From a virus (lineage: Duplodnaviria; Heunggongvirae; Uroviricota; Caudoviricetes): a stretch of 43,121 nucleotides of DNA. The notes beneath the pieces are model-generated. The model saw only the letters and a list, made by a program, of their open reading frames with translations, was not told the DNA's origin and ran no database searches. Shown here in pieces: positions 3,894 to 20,646 of this stretch (positions are counted from its first letter, which is position 1; each line of letters opens with the position of its first letter). The position numbers and the translations under genes were made by a program. Location of the stretch: the IMG/VR virus record IMGVR_UViG_2529292921_000020. The stretch is one strand, 5' to 3'.

Positions 3894-4137
3894 TTTGTTT
3901 TACCTCATTACAGATTTAAGGGTGAACAAATCCCTGCCATTGCTGGCATATAAGAATGAAACCGGATGTTTATTACGGAACTGTTTTAAAGACCTGCCGG
4001 GATTTCGTTATTATCCTGGTGAATAACTTTATCGACCGGGTAACAGTTACCGGGAATTTTCTGTTCGGTTGCTGCAGTCACACACTCCTGCATTGTCCTG
4101 TGAACACTGACTGCAATATCAACTGGCTCTCCGGAAA

Positions 4138-6193
<2,056 letters not shown>

Positions 6194-7158: not shown

Positions 7159-7531
7159 TTTTAATTGTTGTTTTGAAATAATCACTGCTTTCACATTTGA
7201 GTGATTTCATGGCAATCCAAATGCGGGCCTCTGTGCCTGCATTTGGTTCCAGTTGCTGTAGACGTTTTGCGTCTTCCAAAAGTAAGGCGATAATGTGTTT
7301 CAGCTTCTCATCATTTGCTTGATTCTTGTTTTCAGGCGAATTCTGTCCGCCGAATAGGCGCTTCTCTTCATACAGACCTATAAAGGCACGACGCACGTTA
7401 CCGGATATAGTATCGATGGTTTCTTTTTCTACGGTACTCAGGTCAAGAGTCGCCAGTTGAGAGCGAACCACATTCGATGCCATTTCCTGGAATGGTACTG
7501 GTAAATCTTTAAATTCCATCGTCAACCTCAT
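7118..7531 (-). CDS. Hypothetical protein in AT-rich island, convergent with 6841-7158
   Basis: 137-aa ORF (probable start MEFKDLPV); no recognisable motif; occupies the kil/sieB position of Rac-like prophages. Confidence 0.4.
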   Translation of the reverse strand: MRLTMEFKDLPVPFQEMASNVVRSQLATLDLSTVEKETIDTISGNVRRAFIGLYEEKRLFGGQNSPENKNQANDEKLKHIIALLLEDAKRLQQLEPNAGTEARIWIAMKSLKCESSDYFKTTIKTTQLSGELLKKLP

Positions 7532-7764
7532 CAGTCAGTGTTTCTGGTTAACCAGCGACGCGCGCCAGCTTCAGTTTTAAACGTTTTGCTTCTGGTATAC
7601 GTCATCGCGGTAAACGTGCCGTCCTGGTTGGGGAACACGCCACATACCAGAGATTCGTTGTTGCCAAGATTGAGCATATCCATGTTGACCTCATTTCCCC
7701 TTAACGCCGGGGTAGCGGAACAAAAACCTGCTGCATAGTTATTAAAGTTGAACCCTGCCGTCAT
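7531..7764 (-). CDS. DUF1391-family small protein (YdaF-like)
   Basis: C-terminal 50 aa (MDMLNLGNNESLVCGVFPNQDGTFTAMTYTRSKTFKTEAGARRWLTRN) match my recollection of Rac YdaF; real start is probably the internal Met near 7683. Confidence 0.6.
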   Translation of the reverse strand: MTAGFNFNNYAAGFCSATPALRGNEVNMDMLNLGNNESLVCGVFPNQDGTFTAMTYTRSKTFKTEAGARRWLTRNTD

Positions 7765-7869
7765 GTTCTTACGCCTCGGGCTGGCTACTTAACCCCTGAC
7801 CACTGCCTGGTAACTCGAAGTATTGCCCTGCATTCTGTGGGGCGGGGTGGGTTGGTATGAAAAGAAGGA

Positions 7870-7906
7870 TACCCATAGGTATTTAAAAAGTAAATACCCA
7901 TGGGTA
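7870..7906. promoter_or_regulatory. OL-like operator pair: TACCCATAGGTA (7870-7881) and perfect palindrome TACCCATGGGTA (7895-7906)
   Basis: Two 12-bp dyad-symmetric sites 25 bp apart, between the 3' end of the leftward repressor gene and the leftward early genes. Confidence 0.5.
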
Positions 7907-7948
7907 AATTTTTGCGGGGTCTTAACTGGTGACTAGTTGTTTGGTGAG

Positions 7949-8367
7949 CTATGATGCGTTTTGTGCTTTCTTTTTACGGATTTCTTCGTAGATCATATTG
8001 TAATACTGTTTTTTCTCTTCAAGAGTTTTTAATAATTTATCCGCTTCACTTTCTGGCAGTTCGTCTAAGAGATCTAAAAAAATACGTTGTCGTGGCGTTA
8101 GAACCCTTGTTTCATAACTGGAGGCTGTGTTCGTTGATGATGAAACGATACCATCCATCCATCCCCGGGGTAACCCAAAGGACTCTTCGATAATCTCCAC
8201 CATATCATCAGCGATCCGTTTTTTCCCTTTTTCCCCTCTGGGTACAACATTCTTGATACATAAGAAGGCTCGCGCCCGATCTTTCTGGCCACGTTAACCG
8301 CTTTACCATCGCATTTCTCATCACGAATTTTGATGAGTTGCTGTCGTCTAAATTCATATTTGTCCAT
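7949..8367 (-). pseudogene. Leftward prophage repressor (RacR/DicA position, HTH N-terminus), split into two overlapping frames by an apparent frameshift in T6/T5 runs at about 8217-8230
   Basis: ORFs 8098-8367 (HTH-like ...AVNVARKIGREPSYVSRML...) and 7949-8203 overlap in different frames; both frames are open across the homopolymer tract, so a 1-nt indel would give one ~140-aa protein. Confidence 0.55.
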
Positions 8368-8467
8368 AGGTAAATAATAGATGCGATTACCGCAAGGTAA
8401 ACAACCTGTGGGTATTGACTTTTGTTTACCTGCGGGTGTTCTTTGCTGTGTTTACTAAGGAGTAGCT
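8368..8467. promoter_or_regulatory. Divergent OR-like control region with repeated GGTAAAC / GTTTACC half-sites
   Basis: 100-bp intergenic region between divergent repressor and Cro-like genes; GGTAAATAA, GGTAAACAA, TGTTTACC, TGTTTACT repeats; TTGACT -35-like hexamer at 8415. Confidence 0.5.
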
Positions 8468-8749
8468 ATGGAAGAATTAAGAATATTTCTCAATTCTCTT
8501 TCGTCAGATGAACAGCGTATGTTTGCATGCGAGTGTGGTACCAGCATCGGTTATCTAAGAAAGGCATTGAGTAAAGGTCAAGTGTTAGGGGCATCGTTAT
8601 GTGTCCTTATTGAGCGAGCCAGTAATGGTGAAGTTACACGTCAGCAACTAAGGCCTTTTGATTGGATGAATATTTGGCCCGAGCTGGAAGATACCAAAAC
8701 GTTAACACAACCACTTTCTAGGAGCTTGATTCATGAAAATCAAGCATGA
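8468..8749 (+). CDS. Cro/YdaS-like small DNA-binding protein
   Basis: 93-aa ORF divergent from the repressor, first gene of the rightward operon; HTH-like segment (ECGTSIGYLRKALSKGQV). Confidence 0.55.
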   Translation: MEELRIFLNSLSSDEQRMFACECGTSIGYLRKALSKGQVLGASLCVLIERASNGEVTRQQLRPFDWMNIWPELEDTKTLTQPLSRSLIHENQA

Positions 8750-11281: not shown

Positions 11282-11788
11282 GTGGAGATAATAATGGGAA
11301 TAACTAAAGAACGATTGTTGGAAATAGCAAACCTTAGTGATTGGGCATTAAGTGATGAGAGAATTGTTTCTCCTCATGCTTATGAGTCAGTTACAAGTAT
11401 AGAAATAACAACAATGGCTAGAATGCTGCTTGGTTATTTCAAAATAGAAAATAAAAAACAGATGGATAGTAATGTTGATATATGTGAGATTTTAGACGAT
11501 TGGGGGGCTTGGGTTGTGGCTGGTAATAGTTCTATTGATTGGCAGGAAATAGCTGATAAATATAAAAATGTTGTTCCTCATGGTAAAAAATCACGTCGTC
11601 AGTGCAGCAATGATGAAGGGCGAATTATTGACATTAGTATCCTTAGGTTAGAAAGATATAAGCAACAAGAATATGAGTTAATTGTTGCTCATTTCGTGAT
11701 TGGTTTATCTCTTCGTGCTATTGCAAAGCAACAAGGATGTTCAGATGGAACAATTCGTAAAAGATTGCAAAAAGCCTTAGGTTTTTGA
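11282..11788 (+). CDS. Q-like antitermination-family protein (QuuD-type), AT-rich
   Basis: 168-aa ORF; motifs WGAW, SRRQCSNDE and C-terminal HTH CSDGTIRKRLQKA resemble my recollection of DLP12 QuuD; real start may be internal. Confidence 0.45.
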   Translation: MEIIMGITKERLLEIANLSDWALSDERIVSPHAYESVTSIEITTMARMLLGYFKIENKKQMDSNVDICEILDDWGAWVVAGNSSIDWQEIADKYKNVVPHGKKSRRQCSNDEGRIIDISILRLERYKQQEYELIVAHFVIGLSLRAIAKQQGCSDGTIRKRLQKALGF

Positions 11789-11817: not shown

Positions 11818-12450
11818 TCAGCGGTTTTTACCAGTGTAATGGTATAAGGATACTCCCATGTGTCTTACATGATATGGAAGCGCTGTTGCTGGATGCTTTG
11901 TGATACTCTTAAAGCGGAGGGGAGAGCCTTCCGCTTCAATTTCTGCGTCCGAAACGGTCGTAGAGAAAAATTCTTTCCATTCATTGAATTTTACTGCTGA
12001 TTTGTCAGACTTTATATAAATTAGAATTCCTCCATGATCGTCACGTGACGTACCCGTGCCGTAACGTTCGGTTAGCTGAATCCAGCCATTATGAATAGAT
12101 TTGGGGCCTCTCCATAATTTTGCTTCACCGATCCATTCGAATTTTCCGAATTGATGTTTAACTAATAAATCAACGTGACCGCCATGTTGAGTATCATGTT
12201 CAACATCATAAAACCTACCTTTCAGGAAATTTTTGATCGACGCTGTTAGCTCGTCCTCTCCCCACTTAGCATCTTGATAGAAGTGTTTGTCATTTTCTAA
12301 ATTCTGAATAGCGTCGTCTAAATCTTCATAGAGTTGCTTTACAAAAATATTTTTGTCTGCAGCTAATTTTCTTTGAACCATTCCCCTAAATTCAGGATCC
12401 ATTCTAATTAATGATTGAAGGTCTGCAGTACAGATGTTTACATCACTCAT
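11818..12450 (-). CDS. PD-(D/E)xK-type nuclease-like protein, third gene of a three-gene operon
   Basis: About 210 aa from MSDVNICTADL; core motif GGHVDLLVKHQFGKFEWIGEAKLW (D...ExK); start ATG overlaps the upstream stop (ATGAGTGA). Confidence 0.55.
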   Translation of the reverse strand: MSDVNICTADLQSLIRMDPEFRGMVQRKLAADKNIFVKQLYEDLDDAIQNLENDKHFYQDAKWGEDELTASIKNFLKGRFYDVEHDTQHGGHVDLLVKHQFGKFEWIGEAKLWRGPKSIHNGWIQLTERYGTGTSRDDHGGILIYIKSDKSAVKFNEWKEFFSTTVSDAEIEAEGSPLRFKSITKHPATALPYHVRHMGVSLYHYTGKNR

Positions 12451-12871
12451 GCAGACTCTCCAAAAGACTCGAAGGAGTAAAGTATGGATAAAGATACTGG
12501 CTAAAATTATCAACCAATTCGCCAGTTTCTGGATGGTAAAAACTTCCTGTGTCTAAAGCATAGGAAATAAGATCATCTTCAACTGGTATTGGTTCTTCCG
12601 TTAAATTATCAATGTATTGAAAATGCATATCCAATAGATGTGCTTTATAGCTAGATAAATAATCAGTTGCTTTTATTAGCAGGATATAGTCATCTTTCGT
12701 ATCAGTTAGATAGGTTAAACCATTGATAAGGGTTTTGTATGTAAAGTGATTGATATTTTTAGCATCTTTACTAACCAGAAAAAGAAAAAGATCACGACAC
12801 ACACTGCGAACAGGATCATTAAAATCCTGCTCTATTTGCGTGATAATGTCGTGATATATACTCTTTTTCAT
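12443..12871 (-). CDS. Hypothetical protein, middle gene of the three-gene operon
   Basis: 142-aa ORF, AT-rich; start overlaps the stop of the upstream gene (ATGA) and its stop overlaps the start of the nuclease gene. Confidence 0.5.
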   Translation of the reverse strand: MKKSIYHDIITQIEQDFNDPVRSVCRDLFLFLVSKDAKNINHFTYKTLINGLTYLTDTKDDYILLIKATDYLSSYKAHLLDMHFQYIDNLTEEPIPVEDDLISYALDTGSFYHPETGELVDNFSQYLYPYFTPSSLLESLHE

Positions 12872-13964
12872 TTATGGCCTGATGATCTCGCTCTTCTTTT
12901 CTCTTCACAGGACTTAACAGAATCCAATATTTTTTCAACAATAAATATAATCGAATCAATGTTGTTACAGTTCTTCGCAATTGCTTCATGCAACCTAATT
13001 CTAGGATTATCAAGCATTGTCCTTTTTCCTGGTAATATTAACTCTACTGATAAAATATGTGAAGAACTTTGTGGTAAATCCCAAATTTTTCCCAACTTAA
13101 ACTTTGTCAATATTGGGCTTGCGGACTCTCCACTATGATGGTAAACATCTTGACGCAAACACTTTTGACTTGGTTTGAGTTTTAAAGAACTTGTATTGCC
13201 ATCTGAGGTGATAAAAGATACATGAGAAATTCTGCCATCTACTTTTTCGTAAAGATCTTGTATTGAACCAAATAATTCAAGAGGATTGTTTAAAATAACG
13301 CCAGCTTCTTTTTTATAAATTTAGCCACAAGGTATTGTTGAGGCTGTGATTCACTTCTTGGAAGGATAGATAAATCAATCGTAAGAATTAATATTTTTTC
13401 TGCAGGCATTAGCATGATGGTATTAAAGCATTGCGTGACTTGGCGTGTTTTGCATTTTATTTCTCCACCATTAGCACGTAATTCCATACCCGCATCGCTA
13501 AGATGTGTTGGGTCAAGCTCTATCACTTCAGTGTAATACGCTTTGGATAAAAAAACAGCAGTGTCAATTTGTTTATCACGAATGATATCTTGACGTAGTT
13601 CAGCAAAATGCAGCTCAGTATCAGCAACTAACAGCTCCTCTCTGGATAAAGGAATTGGGTATTTTTCTGAGAAGGGGCTATTGTCCTTTTTCTGATTTGT
13701 GAAAATTGTTTGTAATTTTGCTACGTCTTCATCGGTGATTCTATAAATAGAAAGTAATCGATTCCCGCTAAAAATTAAACCTTTCCAGAAATCGTCGATT
13801 CTGTCTTTTAGGTCGGGATTATGCTGAACTACACTATTTACACGTTCAATAAAAAGGGGTAATCCTTGGGCCGTTACACCCAGTGATGAACCAAGAAGCT
13901 TACGGGTGTTGCGCCAGCCAAAGCGTGAATTGATGTTTTTTACTGTTTGCTCAAGCATTAACAC
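12868..13964 (-). pseudogene. First gene of the three-gene operon, split into two frames (13290-13964 and 12868-13320); about 360 aa if fused
   Basis: 224-aa ORF ends at a TAA at 13290-13292 while the downstream frame is open from 13320 to 12868 without a start codon; the frames overlap around a T6 run at 13309-13314. Confidence 0.45.
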
Positions 13965-14304
13965 TTCCTTAATTTTCCCTTAACAATTTAGGGTGCTAAA
14001 CTTTTTTGCGCAGTTTACATAAAAAAATAGTGCGTACGCAAAAACTATCTAACATGATGAGCTTTAACCGGGAAATTTGTATATGTTGTGAGCATAAAGT
14101 TGGCTGAGAAATCTAAAACGGGTAGAATGACTGCGGGTGCTTGAGGCTATCTGTCTCAGGCATGAACACCAAAAGGCAGATAGAGAAAAGCCCCAGTTAA
14201 CATTACGCGTCCGGCAAGACGCTTAACATTAATCTGAGGCCATATCTATGCTCTACACACGTAGGTTAGCCTCTTACGTGCCGAAAGGCAAGGAGAAGCA
14301 GGCT

Positions 14305-14460
14305 ATGAAGCAGCAAAAGGCGATGTTAATCGCCCTGATCGTCATCTGTTTAACCGTCATAATGACGGCACTGGTAACGAGGAAAGACCTCTGCGAGGTA
14401 CGAATCCGAACCGGCCAGACGGAGGTCGCTGTCTTCACAGCTTACGAACCTGAGGAGTAA
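14305..14460 (+). CDS. hokD: Hok/Gef-family type I toxin (HokD/RelF-like), with overlapping upstream mok-like frame from 14248
   Basis: MKQQKAMLIALIVICLTVIMTALVTRKDLCEVRIRTGQTEVAVFTAYEPEE, near-identical to my recollection of E. coli HokD; upstream leader has inverted repeats (CTATCTG / CAGATAG). Confidence 0.8.
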   Translation: MKQQKAMLIALIVICLTVIMTALVTRKDLCEVRIRTGQTEVAVFTAYEPEE

Positions 14461-15967: not shown

Positions 15968-16327
15968 ATGCTCATAGATTTGGTTTTACCTTACCCGCCG
16001 ACGGTGAACACTTACTGGCGACGCCGTGGCAGCACATATTTTGTATCAAAAGTCGGTGAGCGTTATCGCCGTGATGTGGCGCTTATTGTTCGCCAGCAGC
16101 AACTGAAATTAAACCTGTCCGGAAGGCCGGCAATAGAAATTATTGCAGAGCCACCGGATAAGCGCCGTCGTGACCTGGACAATATCCTGAAGGCACCACT
16201 GGATGTACTGACGCATGCGGGGCTGCTCATAGACGACGAGCAGTTTGATGAAATTAATATTGTGCGCGGTCAGCTTGTTCCTGGTGGGCGGTTGGGGATA
16301 AAAATCACAGAACTGGAGTATGCATGA
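15968..16327 (+). CDS. rusA: Holliday junction resolvase RusA
   Basis: 119-aa ORF; conserved RusA motifs (RRRDLDNILKA, LIDDEQ, GGRLGIKITE). Confidence 0.85.
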   Translation: MLIDLVLPYPPTVNTYWRRRGSTYFVSKVGERYRRDVALIVRQQQLKLNLSGRPAIEIIAEPPDKRRRDLDNILKAPLDVLTHAGLLIDDEQFDEINIVRGQLVPGGRLGIKITELEYA

Positions 16328-17013
16328 ATAACCAGTATTTACAGTTTGTTCGTGAGCAACTCATGATTGCCACCGCCGATTTGAGTGGATCAACAAAAGG
16401 GCAGCTTGAGGCCTGGCAGGAGAATGCCATGTTTGATACAGGGCGTTACAGGCGTAAAAAAATCCGGTACCGCGATGAAGTGACTGGAAAAATGATAACG
16501 CGGGATAATCCACCAATCCCGGGAAAGCAATCGCTGGCGAAGGGGGCGTCAATTCCTCTCGTCAGTCCGGTTGAGTTTTTGACATCATCGTGGCGGCGGG
16601 CTGTTCTGTCTCTTGAAGAACATCATAAAGCCTGGTTGTTGTGGTGTTACAGCGGGAGTATTTGTTGGGAATATCAGATCGCGATAACACAGTGGGCGTG
16701 GAATGAATTTAATACTCAATCCGGTACCAGAAAAATTGCTGGGAAAACGCAGGAACGCCTGAAAAAATTAATCTGGCTGGCGGCGCAGGCAGTAAAAGCA
16801 GAACTTTTTGGTGGGGAAGGTTATGAATATCAGGAGCTGGCATTACTGGCGGGAGTGACAACTAAAAACTGGTCCAAAACATTTACTCGTCACTGGGTTG
16901 CAATGAAACACATTTTTCACCGACTGGATAGTGAGGCTTTATTATTTGTAATGAGAACACGTTCAAAACAAAAGGCGGCATTTTCAAAGCAAAGTGTTGC
17001 AAAAGTAGATTGA
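16324..17013 (+). CDS. Late-gene antitermination protein Q-like
   Basis: 229-aa ORF directly after rusA and before the promoter, terminator and tRNA-lysis region, the canonical Q position; family assigned by synteny. Confidence 0.6.
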   Translation: MNNQYLQFVREQLMIATADLSGSTKGQLEAWQENAMFDTGRYRRKKIRYRDEVTGKMITRDNPPIPGKQSLAKGASIPLVSPVEFLTSSWRRAVLSLEEHHKAWLLWCYSGSICWEYQIAITQWAWNEFNTQSGTRKIAGKTQERLKKLIWLAAQAVKAELFGGEGYEYQELALLAGVTTKNWSKTFTRHWVAMKHIFHRLDSEALLFVMRTRSKQKAAFSKQSVAKVD

Positions 17014-17448: not shown

Positions 17449-17576
17449 CTACACTTATTTTCCCGGCTCGCTTTTGCGGGCCTTTTTTTTAAATGTCTCA
17501 CAATTCAGACGGTTGACAGTTGTCTGTTTTGCGGGGAGTTTGTTAAGTAAGCGACTCGTCAGAACCGTATTGATAT

Positions 17577-19148
17577 TTACTGAGAGCTCAGATCAACTTT
17601 CCAGGGCAACAGATCGCGTACCCGGTTTGCCGGCCAGTCCTGGATATGTTCAATGACGTAACGCAGCCACTTTTCTGGCTCCACATTGTTCAGACGGCAT
17701 GTGCCGATCAGCGAGTACAACACCGCCGCATGTTCACCACCGCTGTCGGAACCCGCGAACATCCAGTTTTTCCGGCCTACGGCCACTCCCCGTAAGGCGT
17801 TCTCTGCGATGTTGTTGTCGATTTCCACCCAGCCATTACTGCAGTACACGTTCAGTGCATCCCACTGTTTCAGCAGGTATGCGAACGCTTTTGCCGTATC
17901 TGAGTGACGCGACAGTGTTTTCATCTGTTGCTGTATCCAGTCATACAGTGACTGCATCAGTGGCGCGGCTCTGGCTTTTCTTGCCGCCAGACGCTGTTCT
18001 GCTGAACAGCACCGGACCTCTGCCTCGATGGCATACAGTTCACCGATACGCTGCAGGGCTTCCGTGGTGATGTAGGTGGGCGCTCTTGCATGCACATCGT
18101 GGATTTTTCTCCGGGCATGAGCCATACACGCGGCTTCCGTTATTCTGCCGGATTCGTATAACGCCCGGTAACCACCGTAAGCATCGGCCTGAAGCACACC
18201 GCTGTAACCGGCCAGGTGATTTTGTGGATGGATACCTTTCCGGTCCGGACTGTACGCGAACCAGACCGCCGGGGGCATCTGTGAACCGGCGTTACGGTCA
18301 TCACGGACGTAGACCCACAGCCGGGCTGTCCGGGTTTTACCGCTGCCCGGCTCCTGGACCGGGACGGGGATATCATCAGCATGGACTTTACCGGGCATCA
18401 GCACATACTGGCGCAGGACGTCATACAGCGGCTCCAGCAGTTCAGCAACAGCACCTGTCCAGCGCCCCAGTGTGGCACGGCTCAGCTCCACGCCCTGACG
18501 ACGGTATATTTCTGACTGGCGGTATAACGGCAGATGGTCTGCATATTTCCCGGTGACAACATGGGCCAGAAGCCCCGCTCCGGCATAACTGCGTGCAATG
18601 GGTTTTGAAGGTACTGGTGCCTGCACGATATGGTCGCACCGGCAACAGGCCTGTTTCGGACGTTGTGTTTCGATAACCTTAAAGGCGCTGCTGATAAGCT
18701 CCAGTTGCTCTGACACATCACATCCCAGAGAACTGAGTTCACCACCACAGGCAGGACAGCATTCCTCTTCCGGCCGGATAACCCGGGTTTCACGGGGAAG
18801 TGAGGCCGGTAACGGTTTACGGGCTGAAGACTGGCGCAGGGCGGATGGCAGTACCGGGTCATATTGCTCACCCAGCGTTTCCGCCATTTCTTCCTGAAGT
18901 GCGCTGATTCGCTCCTGTGCTTCCTGTATCTGCCGTTCGGTTTTTGCACGAAGTTTTTCTGAGCTTTTACCGAACTGCATACGTTGCAGTTTCGCAACCA
19001 GCGCCTTCAGCCGGTTGATTTCGGAAGCATAAGCCGCCACCCGCTGTGAGAGCAGGCGGTTGTATTCAGCCATCTGGCGGATGGTGTCCTGTTGCGTCTG
19101 CAACAGTGCCCGCAGGCGGGCGTTCTCATGAGCAAGTGAGGTGTCCAT
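17577..19148 (-). CDS. IS66-family transposase (TnpC)
   Basis: 523-aa ORF with N-terminal coiled coil, Cys-rich zinc-binding region and DDE core typical of IS66 transposases. Confidence 0.85.
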
Positions 19149-19167
19149 ATCCTCACTTTACAACGGG

Positions 19168-19515
19168 TTATATGCGGATTCCAGCGCGTTCCGTTCGTTT
19201 CGGGTGCTTCCAGTTGATACCTTCAAGAAGCATGGATAACTGAGCCGGAGTAAGGTGCACCTTGCCGTCACGGGTGACTGGCCAGACGAAGCGGCCCCGC
19301 TCCAGGCGTTTGGTGAAGAGGCACAGTCCGTCACTGTCAGCCCACAACACTTTTATCTGGTCACCCCGGCGTCCGCGGAAGATGAACAGGTGTCCGGAGA
19401 ACGGGTCATCCTTCAGGACGTTCTGAACTTTTGATGCCAGGCCGTTAAAGCCATTTCGCATATCGGTGATACCTGCAACCAGCCAGATACGCGAACCTGC
19501 AGGGAGAGATATCAT
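19168..19515 (-). CDS. IS66 accessory protein TnpB (Orf2)
   Basis: 115-aa ORF MISLPAGSRIWLVAGITDMRNGFNGL..., characteristic IS66 Orf2. Confidence 0.8.
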   Translation of the reverse strand: MISLPAGSRIWLVAGITDMRNGFNGLASKVQNVLKDDPFSGHLFIFRGRRGDQIKVLWADSDGLCLFTKRLERGRFVWPVTRDGKVHLTPAQLSMLLEGINWKHPKRTERAGIRI

Positions 19516-20192
19516 CAGTGGCTGCTCCCTTTTATTTCGCGGATAAGTGTCTGTAATAACGCCGGCGTCAGTTTACCTTTAAGCCTGAGAGTTCCGGCCG
19601 GCAGAACCAGCTCACAACACAGACTGTCGGACGGTGTATTTATCTGCTCTGGTTCCTGTGCGGGGGCCGGGATTTTATTATCCGGCTCCGGCGTTAACGT
19701 CACGGGAAGCAGTGCCGGCATATTTTTTCCGGAAGGCAGCAGGCCACCTTTCCGGTATTGATGGCGCCAGTTGAAGAGCAGGTTATCGTTGATTCCGTTT
19801 TCCCGGGCGATCTGCGCCACACAGGCTCCGGGCTGCAGTGACTGCTCCACTAAGGCGATTTTAAACTCATAAGGGAAGTTGGGCCGCCGGGGACGTTTTT
19901 TTACCACGGGGGCTTCGGATATAACGGTGCTTTCAGGACGTACGACTGGTACCGTGGAAAATTGTCCGTAAAGGCAGGCATCAAGTTCCTGCTCCGACAT
20001 GCCTGCGGGCAAAGGCCACGAAAGGCCAGCTCTCCGAAAGCGCACGAACATACTACAAACTGTTGATTTTGGTACACCCAGGCGACGCCCGGCCACAACC
20101 CGGGGTAAATGTTCTTCAAAGTGAAGACGTAAAGCTTCAGTGATCCAGGTCCGGTGTTTCATACGATAGTGTCCATTAAAAATGATGGACAT
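19515..20192 (-). CDS. IS66 accessory protein TnpA (Orf1)
   Basis: 225-aa ORF with N-terminal HTH, first gene of the IS66 operon, coupled to TnpB. Confidence 0.7.
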   Translation of the reverse strand: MSIIFNGHYRMKHRTWITEALRLHFEEHLPRVVAGRRLGVPKSTVCSMFVRFRRAGLSWPLPAGMSEQELDACLYGQFSTVPVVRPESTVISEAPVVKKRPRRPNFPYEFKIALVEQSLQPGACVAQIARENGINDNLLFNWRHQYRKGGLLPSGKNMPALLPVTLTPEPDNKIPAPAQEPEQINTPSDSLCCELVLPAGTLRLKGKLTPALLQTLIREIKGSSH

Positions 20193-20646
20193 TATTTTTG
20201 TAGAGCCGGAGGAAACAGACCAGACGGTTTAAATGAGCCGGTTACTTTGTTAAAAGAAACTGGCATGGTGAATCCCCCTGTGCGGAGGGGCAATCAGCGA
20301 GTAGGTATATGGGATAATCGCGGATTCAGGTGCTGGTACTGAATTCACCGGGAGGCACCCGGCACCATGCAATGGCACATAGCGCCACTCTCCAGCCCCT
20401 CTCCGGAGGGGCTTTCTTATGGACAAAAAAAGCCCGCGCAGGGAGACGCGGGCGGCAAGGAATAAACAACAAAACGTGAAGTAATATTTCAGCTGGCGAA
20501 TAATATCCGACAGTAATCACTCTGCGCAATAGCGCGGCCTTTTTCGTATTGCGGACTGTTGTCTCTCTTCTGCCATTGTCCTGTAACTTCCGGACTTCAG
20601 CCCGCTCCTCATTTTACTCACAATATTATCCCGGCCGGGAGGATTC

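Follow-up and report, generated by a model that had tools for sequence, protein, structure and literature searches.

A conserved, mobile three-gene cassette with an RdgC/RexA-like fold and a predicted PD-(D/E)xK nuclease: a candidate anti-phage or toxin-antitoxin-like system carried by a lambdoid prophage

Introduction

The subject of this report is a three-gene cassette, A-B-C, on the minus strand of a 43,121-nucleotide DNA from the virus record IMGVR_UViG_2529292921_000020 (hereafter the window), an insertion sequence (IS)-rich lambdoid prophage that is 99.8% identical, over the region of interest, to a prophage of enteropathogenic Escherichia coli (EPEC) E2348/69. The cassette is a real, conserved and translationally coupled operon. 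Its first gene encodes a protein whose predicted structure resembles RdgC and the lambda exclusion protein RexA, the second a small, soluble, acidic protein, and the third a predicted PD-(D/E)xK nuclease of the BamHI structural class that has no accompanying methyltransferase. Searches with A, B and C returned no match to a phage structural or replication family or to a catalogued defence system, PADLOC-DB 2.0.0 included, in keeping with a preliminary description of this DNA that had offered the module as a candidate undescribed defence or abortive-infection locus. We regard it as a credible candidate for a new anti-phage or toxin-antitoxin (TA)-like system: a novel assembly of components at the system level that still belongs to the well-known class of mobile, nuclease-based defence and TA cassettes.

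Results

A conserved and translationally coupled operon

12868-13958, minus strand: gene A, encoding a protein with a predicted RdgC/RexA fold; 363 aa when intact (E2348/69 WP_000893384.1), frameshifted in the window
12443-12871, minus strand: gene B, encoding a soluble acidic protein of 142 aa; its start overlaps the stop of A
11818-12450, minus strand: gene C, encoding a predicted PD-(D/E)xK nuclease (window, 210 aa; E2348/69, 213 aa) and overlapping the B stop with its start

The three co-oriented minus-strand genes of the preliminary description are present, as are the two stop/start overlaps that chain them: ATGA (12871-12868) between the stop of A and the start of B, and the 8-nt ATGAGTGA (12450-12443) between the stop of B and the start of C. 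Gene A begins at the ATG at 13958, which lies 5 nt downstream of the sequence AAGGAAG. All three products are annotated as hypothetical proteins by the Prokaryotic Genome Annotation Pipeline (PGAP), which calls a 197-aa C in E2348/69. The identical 8-nt B/C overlap is retained in a second E. coli cassette variant (L003) with only ~60% amino-acid identity, and this favours the start that yields a C of 210 aa over the one called by PGAP.

Scanning with a C profile identified 37 loci in a collection containing one genome per species, and 61 further loci lie on IMG/VR viral contigs. The genome loci are distributed among Gamma-, Beta- and Alphaproteobacteria and Cyanobacteria (Calothrix, Nostoc, Oscillatoria). 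In a hidden Markov model (HMM) scan, A, B and C were colinear in 31 of the 37; of the other six loci, three run into contig ends, two have B and C but lack A, and in one the partners are different. The full triplet was found in 56 of the 61 IMG/VR loci, and the remaining five are cut by contig ends. Over both sets, 87 of 98 related loci thus keep the gene order of the coupled operon that had been proposed from the window, and contig ends truncate 8 of the 11 that do not. In another E. coli prophage, Shewanella baltica, Photobacterium and a metagenomic bacterium, the C homologue is preceded by A-like (351-387 aa) and B-like (132-151 aa) genes whose ends overlap or abut. The A profile, in an exhaustive HMMER search, recovered 499 representatives at 50% identity, nearly all of 335-390 aa, and two family members that are only ~20% identical to A still sit in A-B-C triplets.

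The cassette occurs in diverse surroundings. Among 5426 complete E. coli genomes, the variant in the window is present in 14 and the second variant in 12. Further copies were found in an E. coli prophage, where the cassette lies antisense between Q and holin; in Shewanella baltica, adjacent to a resolvase; on a Photobacterium island; on a 19-kb Moritella plasmid, next to ParA; and alongside a Type ISP restriction-modification (RM) enzyme; in both E. coli contexts the orientation is antisense to phage operons. The 105 open reading frames (ORFs) flanking 30 of the genome loci contain no conserved family, and include housekeeping genes, resolvases, conjugation and type IV secretion system genes, Type I RM genes (2-3 loci), HipA and an antidote protein. 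Colinear triplets that share no neighbours indicate that the cassette is self-contained and mobile.

A few loci depart from the triplet arrangement. B-C pairs without A lie directly downstream of ftsZ or tuf at L052 (Asticcacaulis, 7500-8609) and L054 (Litoreibacter, 7650-8537); apparent A-B fusions at these two loci were rejected, as the long frames are read-through from ftsZ and tuf, and the loci are B-C-only. At L056 (Nioella), C is preceded by two unrelated ORFs of 400 and 356 aa. Together, the B-C-only loci and L056 show that partner exchange exists around the nuclease. Gene calls from Logan assemblies of an Enterobacter-like lineage include two proteins, P0287 (352 aa) and P0296 (347 aa), that run across gene boundaries in a single frame, joining B to C, and B to the end of A and the beginning of C. 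Either the assemblies contain frameshifts at the overlaps or the fusions are natural, in which case they would argue for physical interaction.

Protein C has the fold and catalytic residues of a PD-(D/E)xK nuclease

12118-12171, minus strand: catalytic core of C, comprising D94 (GAT, 12171-12169), E109 (12126-12124) and K111 (12120-12118)

The motif GGHVDLLV...FEWIGEAKLW, on which the assignment of C as a nuclease was first based, is present in the protein, and structure prediction bears the assignment out. The AlphaFold2 (AF2) model of C has a predicted local distance difference test (pLDDT) score of 91.5 and displays the alpha-beta-beta-beta-alpha-beta core of the PD-(D/E)xK superfamily. The D...ExK triad aligns on this restriction-endonuclease fold, with D94 in strand beta2 (residues 91-98) and E109 and K111 in strand beta3 (105-112). 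In 44 of 44 C homologues, representing all lineages sampled, the triad is invariant, together with E65, D66, H85, G91, Q125 and Y130, and a Q...Y motif follows the ExK motif. C is presumably catalytically active, judging from this model and its conserved residues.

In structural comparisons C comes closest to true restriction enzymes of the BamHI/OkrAI/BstYI/BglII class and to McrC, and its predicted fold is BamHI-like. C shares with the BamHI-class enzymes the placement of the aspartate on beta2 and the ExK motif on beta3. In contrast to them it is only 8-14% identical in sequence, has no cognate methyltransferase, and is always paired with A and B. No methyltransferase was found in the cassette, and none is conserved among the 105 flanking ORFs from 30 loci. 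At only 210 aa, C has no separate DNA-recognition domain. Taken together, the model points to a PD-(D/E)xK nuclease of the BamHI structural class that lacks a methyltransferase.

Sequence searches place C less precisely. It had no sequence match in Pfam, NCBIfam or the PDB; PDDEXK_9 was matched by only 2 of 31 C-family members, with an E value of 0.018, and the sole PDB profile matches, to Rab GTPases (E ~0.02), were discarded as spurious. Membership in the PD-(D/E)xK superfamily is therefore by fold and catalytic motif, and not by a match to a curated family model. The only hit for C in the PADLOC catalogue is PDC-S54, to which residues 88-150, the catalytic core, align weakly and partially (positions 295-353 of 410, E 0.0016). 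The PDC-S54 model differs from C in being about twice its length, and it has no counterpart of A or B.

Protein A resembles RdgC and RexA in its predicted fold

The AF2 model of an intact allele of A (P0046) has a pLDDT of 83.4 and a predicted template modelling (pTM) score of 0.81. RdgC was the best full-length structural match by two methods, and the base, centre and tip domains that define the RdgC fold are all found in the A model. A is distinguished by an extra four-helix N-terminus and is ~60 aa longer than RdgC. IML3 and CHL4, and their human counterparts CENP-L and CENP-N, also appear among its structural matches. The same group of folds surfaced when the crystal structure of lambda RexA was solved: it revealed "unexpected structural homology" to RdgC, and IML3 and CHL4 were among the relatives reported (PMC11077077). 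RexA and its actinophage homologues of 337-372 aa bind DNA non-specifically and take part in prophage-encoded exclusion (PMC11077077). In lambdoid phages, RdgC homologues have been noted at the position of Rex, and a role in exclusion has been suggested for them (PMC12315714).

The initial view that A and B match no family stands in one respect and has been superseded in another: A had no family match in Pfam, NCBIfam or PADLOC, and neither did B, but A can now be assigned the RdgC/RexA fold on the strength of its model. Among 127 diverse members of the A family there was no Pfam match, and PADLOC gave only scattered single matches with E values above 1e-4. The most conserved stretch of A lies in its C-terminal third and reads CLRxDxYHHGGExASPILTK in the enterobacterial alignment; R269, H274 and G277 are kept in the wider family.

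Protein B is a small, soluble, acidic protein

Protein B has an isoelectric point (pI) of 4.6, and in each of six lineages tested the protein is acidic (pI 4.5-5.4). Alignments revealed a conserved motif, G-x-F-x-H-P-x-T/S-G-E. B is predicted to be soluble, without a transmembrane segment, and its maximum Kyte-Doolittle hydropathy in a 19-residue window is 0.57, as compared with 2.39 for RexB. It evolves rapidly: a word-indexed search gave only 7 relatives, and a profile recognises B in all triplets. A Pfam scan of the family members showed nothing recurrent. With respect to the arrangement of type II TA genes, B overlaps C by 8 nt, is acidic, and is found in loci that contain only B and C.

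Catalogue and literature searches

For the cassette as a whole, PHROGs matches to A, B and C were limited to families of unknown function (12777, 11490 and 9664). Neither an NTPase domain (Pfam, NCBIfam, PADLOC) nor a known modified-base reader domain (SRA, YTH or PUA-type) was detected in A or B, and no Rex model in PADLOC or Pfam was matched. A, B and C are undescribed in the literature that was searched, which included the text and supplements of DefensePredictor and a domain-centric discovery paper; a prior description is not fully excluded.

Gene A is interrupted at a homopolymer in the window

13309-13314, no strand: T6 homopolymer (T7 in E2348/69) that shifts the frame of gene A after codon 217

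Gene A had been described as a continuous ORF of about 360 aa. This holds for E2348/69, in which the protein is an intact 363 aa, but not for the window, where the T6 run shifts the frame and leaves a 222-aa ORF (13290-13958) followed by an out-of-frame remainder that extends down to 12868. The frameshift removes the most conserved, C-terminal third of A from the reading frame. Protein analyses of A were accordingly based on intact alleles.

We compared the window with near-identical copies, comprising 16 viral-contig loci and two complete E. coli genomes, and found the T7 run, hence the intact 363-aa allele, in 17 of the 18. Over ~35 kb, the window and E2348/69 differ by 7 indels, 7 bases at 6 sites (8218, 11781, 11824, 13308, 14548 and 28533), all of which are contractions of T or A runs and always shorter in the window. 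One of these, at ~11824-11830, causes the C-terminal end of protein C to read KNR in place of KKTADS, and the end of the converging Q gene is likewise altered by another contraction. Since all 7 indels are homopolymer contractions, the frameshift in gene A is most simply explained as an assembly artefact, and it is probably an error of homopolymer under-calling. The pattern suggests that the source assembly under-calls homopolymers systematically and that other apparent frameshifts in the window need caution. The T6 allele recurs in a second background (L074, 99.1% identical) and in a DEC6B protein (P0263), and its recurrence leaves room for a true slippage allele; if the frameshift is real, the window copy is a B-C remnant.

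Gene A is also split, at positions other than the T6 run and with B and C intact, at L075 (6472-7580), at L117 (6443-7506) and in NZ_CP182203.1 (L002, 4172-5262). These cases represent either recurrent inactivation or recurrent mis-sequencing of homopolymers.

The cassette occupies a cargo site beside hokD

14305-14460, plus strand: hokD, type I toxin (by translation and E2348/69 annotation), the upstream-side neighbour of the cassette, divergent to gene A
13959-14304, no strand: divergent intergenic region between gene A and hokD; common E. coli DNA from ~14122 rightwards, rare cargo to the left of that
11282-11788, plus strand: antiterminator Q gene, PF06530-type (Pfam E 6e-30), converging on the 3' end of C; context, outside the operon
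4137-6092: IS21-type element (rve transposase and IstB), inserted in the prophage relative to E2348/69
17546-20278: IS66-type element (three ORFs), inserted in the prophage relative to E2348/69
33960-35511: ISEc13/IS4 element inside morphogenesis genes, inserted relative to E2348/69

The cassette is AT-rich, as the preliminary description had remarked in proposing it as acquired cargo, with a GC fraction of 0.366 as compared with 0.472 and 0.511 in its flanks and 0.52 in the whole window; cassette GC is below that of the flanks in four other loci as well. Its position next to hokD, at the locus that holds relBE in Qin, was also correctly identified. In K-12 Qin, relB-relE fill the slot immediately upstream of hokD, and in strain ST648 the same hokD-side slot is filled by other small ORFs and an IS3 element. 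The DNA to the left of hokD is thus highly variable, which fits a cargo hotspot. The boundary is sharp: positions 14122-14300 of the window (query 2423-2601) were matched in 4525 of the 5426 complete E. coli genomes, the whole query in only 14. The hokD/mok/sok locus itself (14122-14460) is often present in several copies per E. coli genome (median 2, maximum 8). The region between gene A and hokD must hold both the cassette promoter and the hok/mok/sok control region.

On the other side, the PF06530-type Q gene sits within the same AT-rich block as the cassette, and in E2348/69 it shares a 4-nt overlap with gene C. It is 39% identical to the Q gene (L003 8612-8998) that converges on C in the second E. 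coli variant, and the convergence of related Q genes in both variants makes Q and the cassette look like an old linked block. One speculation is that Q-dependent late transcription, running antisense through the cassette, might shut it down upon induction. Two Q antiterminator genes from different families are present in the prophage, this one and another at 16324-17013 (plus strand).

The counterpart prophage in E2348/69 has an insertion site that adjoins ompW. The prophage in the window, interrupted by these three IS elements, is probably defective. E2348/69 also has a copy of ISEc13, which lies in a different place, after tRNA genes. An 823-aa exonuclease gene is present in the early-left region of the prophage. 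An 893-aa ORF (30610-33291), annotated as the portal protein in E2348/69, contains repeats at 32232-32825 with an offset of ~162 bp and ~88-91% identity.

Discussion

How the cassette might work

Our favoured interpretation, which we put forward with about as much confidence as doubt, is that the cassette is an autonomous mobile defence or abortive-infection system, with A as the DNA sensor, B as the regulator and C as the cleaving enzyme. The cassette would be carried as antisense "moron" cargo in the lambdoid prophage. A would bind DNA, by analogy with RdgC, which forms a dimeric ring around DNA, and with RexA, the DNA-binding sensor of Rex, and may respond to a state of the DNA that is specific to infection, for example free ends or intermediates of replication or recombination. 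B, whose gene lies just upstream of C and overlaps it in the manner of an antitoxin, would silence C or link its activity to A. Once A has sensed such a state, C would be released or activated and would cut DNA, which would halt the phage and might kill the cell. A sharper version of this scheme, in which A is an RdgC/RexA-fold clamp that reads a phage-specific DNA state and licenses the BamHI-like C through B as an acidic adaptor, is a tentative suggestion about which we are more doubtful than confident. If it were true, the RdgC/RexA fold would be a general bacterial sensor of DNA state to which different effectors can be attached, an ion channel in the case of Rex and a nuclease in that of the cassette.

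Relationship to known systems

The cassette resembles Rex in its predicted sensor fold and prophage setting, and partner-controlled nucleases and DNase toxins in its effector logic, and it belongs to none of them. When it was compared with Rex, RdgC, Type II RM, NTPase-nuclease systems and the PADLOC catalogue, it failed in each case on a defining feature, and only the PD-(D/E)xK superfamily could accommodate one of its proteins. Several features are shared with the Rex systems, comprising RexA/RexB and the actinophage Rex-like systems. Both are prophage-encoded; RexA has the RdgC/IML3/CHL4 fold and binds DNA non-specifically (PMC11077077); the actinophage RexA homologues, at 337-372 aa, are near A in size; and Rex is thought to couple the sensing of infection to a lethal effector. 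There are also differences. A has no sequence relationship with RexA (hhalign probability 0.2%, with no Rex match in PADLOC or Pfam), and an hhalign comparison with RexB gave a probability of 0.3%. RexB is a multi-pass membrane protein, whereas the partners in the cassette are a soluble acidic protein and a nuclease, and Rex consists of two genes rather than three. As for RdgC (PF04381), A has no PF04381 match and an hhalign probability of 1%, and B and C invariably follow A, in contrast to the housekeeping gene for RdgC, which stands alone. Unlike Hachiman HamA/HamB, McrBC and CdiA-CT/CdiI, the cassette lacks a helicase, a GTPase or any other NTPase as a partner, and its A and B proteins belong to different, uncatalogued families; neither A nor B supplies the NTPase partner expected of Gabija-like, Hachiman or McrBC systems.

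Points that weigh against a DNA-sensing defence system

Several observations count against the proposed interpretation. The likeness of A to RdgC is at the level of the fold only, with TM scores of 0.29-0.34, and RexA itself was not among the listed structural matches. Comparing the A family profile with E. coli RdgC by hhalign gave the 1% probability cited above, and comparing A with lambda RexA gave 0.2%; sequence homology to RdgC, RexA or RexB was accordingly rejected, and fold similarity alone was retained. The most conserved stretch of A, residues 267-285, was modelled with low confidence, which would fit an interface or a mobile loop, and the pI of A ranges from 5.0 to 9.0. B has no fold assignment, and profile searches with it found no PDB match. 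In the window copy gene A is disrupted, and a scan for consensus promoters found no minus-strand match upstream of A in 13959-14304; total promoter and terminator counts for the region were close to the shuffled expectation. With regard to genomic context, RM, TA or mobile-element genes are few among the immediate neighbours, most of which are housekeeping genes, and the 105 flanking ORFs from 30 loci do not show defence-island enrichment. Finally, neither experiments nor publications showing that the cassette confers phage resistance were found.

Alternative functions

The same features could describe a tripartite TA or addiction module, in which C is a DNase toxin, B its antitoxin and A a regulator or chaperone, and which stabilises its carrier element with no dedicated anti-phage function. 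B immediately precedes and overlaps C, is acidic in all six lineages tested, and forms B-C pairs without A, and the cassette is found on a small plasmid next to ParA and, beside hokD, in the slot held by relBE in Qin. Against this, A is retained in 31 of 34 genome loci and 56 of 56 viral loci that are not cut by contig ends; at ~360 aa it exceeds typical TA accessory proteins in size; and many loci lie amid chromosomal housekeeping genes, with no obvious element to stabilise. We consider such a module unlikely, albeit a serious contender, and note that TA and defence roles are not mutually exclusive.

Methyltransferase-free Type IV, or modification-dependent, restriction is an improbable alternative. 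According to this model, an A/B complex would recognise modified or otherwise foreign DNA and direct C to cut it, without killing the cell. The structural kinship of C with true restriction enzymes and McrC, the absence of a methyltransferase within the cassette or conserved beside it, and the DNA-clamp fold of A would all be accommodated. Nonetheless, scans of A and B detected no NTPase and none of the known readers of modified bases (SRA, YTH, PUA-type), and the 210-aa C lacks a separate DNA-recognition domain.

A third alternative is a phage recombination or repair module like lambda gam-bet-exo, with A as a recombination modulator, B as a Gam-like inhibitor and C as an end-processing nuclease. 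The Q...Y motif that follows ExK in C would suit such a role, and the sizes and charge pattern of the three proteins recall exo, itself a PD-(D/E)xK enzyme, bet and gam. The orientation of the cassette antisense to phage operons in both E. coli contexts argues otherwise, as does the 823-aa exonuclease gene that the prophage already has. RdgC modulates RecA-dependent recombination (PMC11077077), which would be in line with the role assigned to A, but the majority of loci lie outside phages, and we judge this alternative very improbable.

The weakest candidate is a signalling system in which A is a triphosphate-tunnel (CYTH/class IV cyclase-like) enzyme whose nucleotide product activates C as cA3 activates NucC; it is scarcely believable, since TBP-like and helix-grip folds match A equally well and make the triphosphate-tunnel similarity generic, while RdgC is the full-length best match by two methods and the A family conserves few charged residues (R12, D195, R269, H274) and no ExExK-type tunnel signature, and it was rejected as the main explanation.

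Significance

Returning to the interpretation of the cassette as a mobile defence system, its confirmation would add three uncatalogued protein families to bacterial immunity, of which the A family alone comprises 499 clusters at 50% identity. These families extend from prophages of enterobacteria to the chromosomes of cyanobacteria, and at present they go unrecognised by PADLOC, Pfam and PGAP. The structural link to RexA and RdgC is informative in its own right, and a defence function would tie the RdgC/RexA fold to a nuclease effector. If A does act as proposed, this soluble system of three proteins, whose DNase output is easy to assay, would be a tractable model for determining what RexA senses and how the signal reaches an effector. 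The cassette is present in prophages of EPEC and Shiga toxin (Stx)-producing E. coli (STEC), and it could shape which phages, therapeutic and Stx phages among them, are able to infect those strains.

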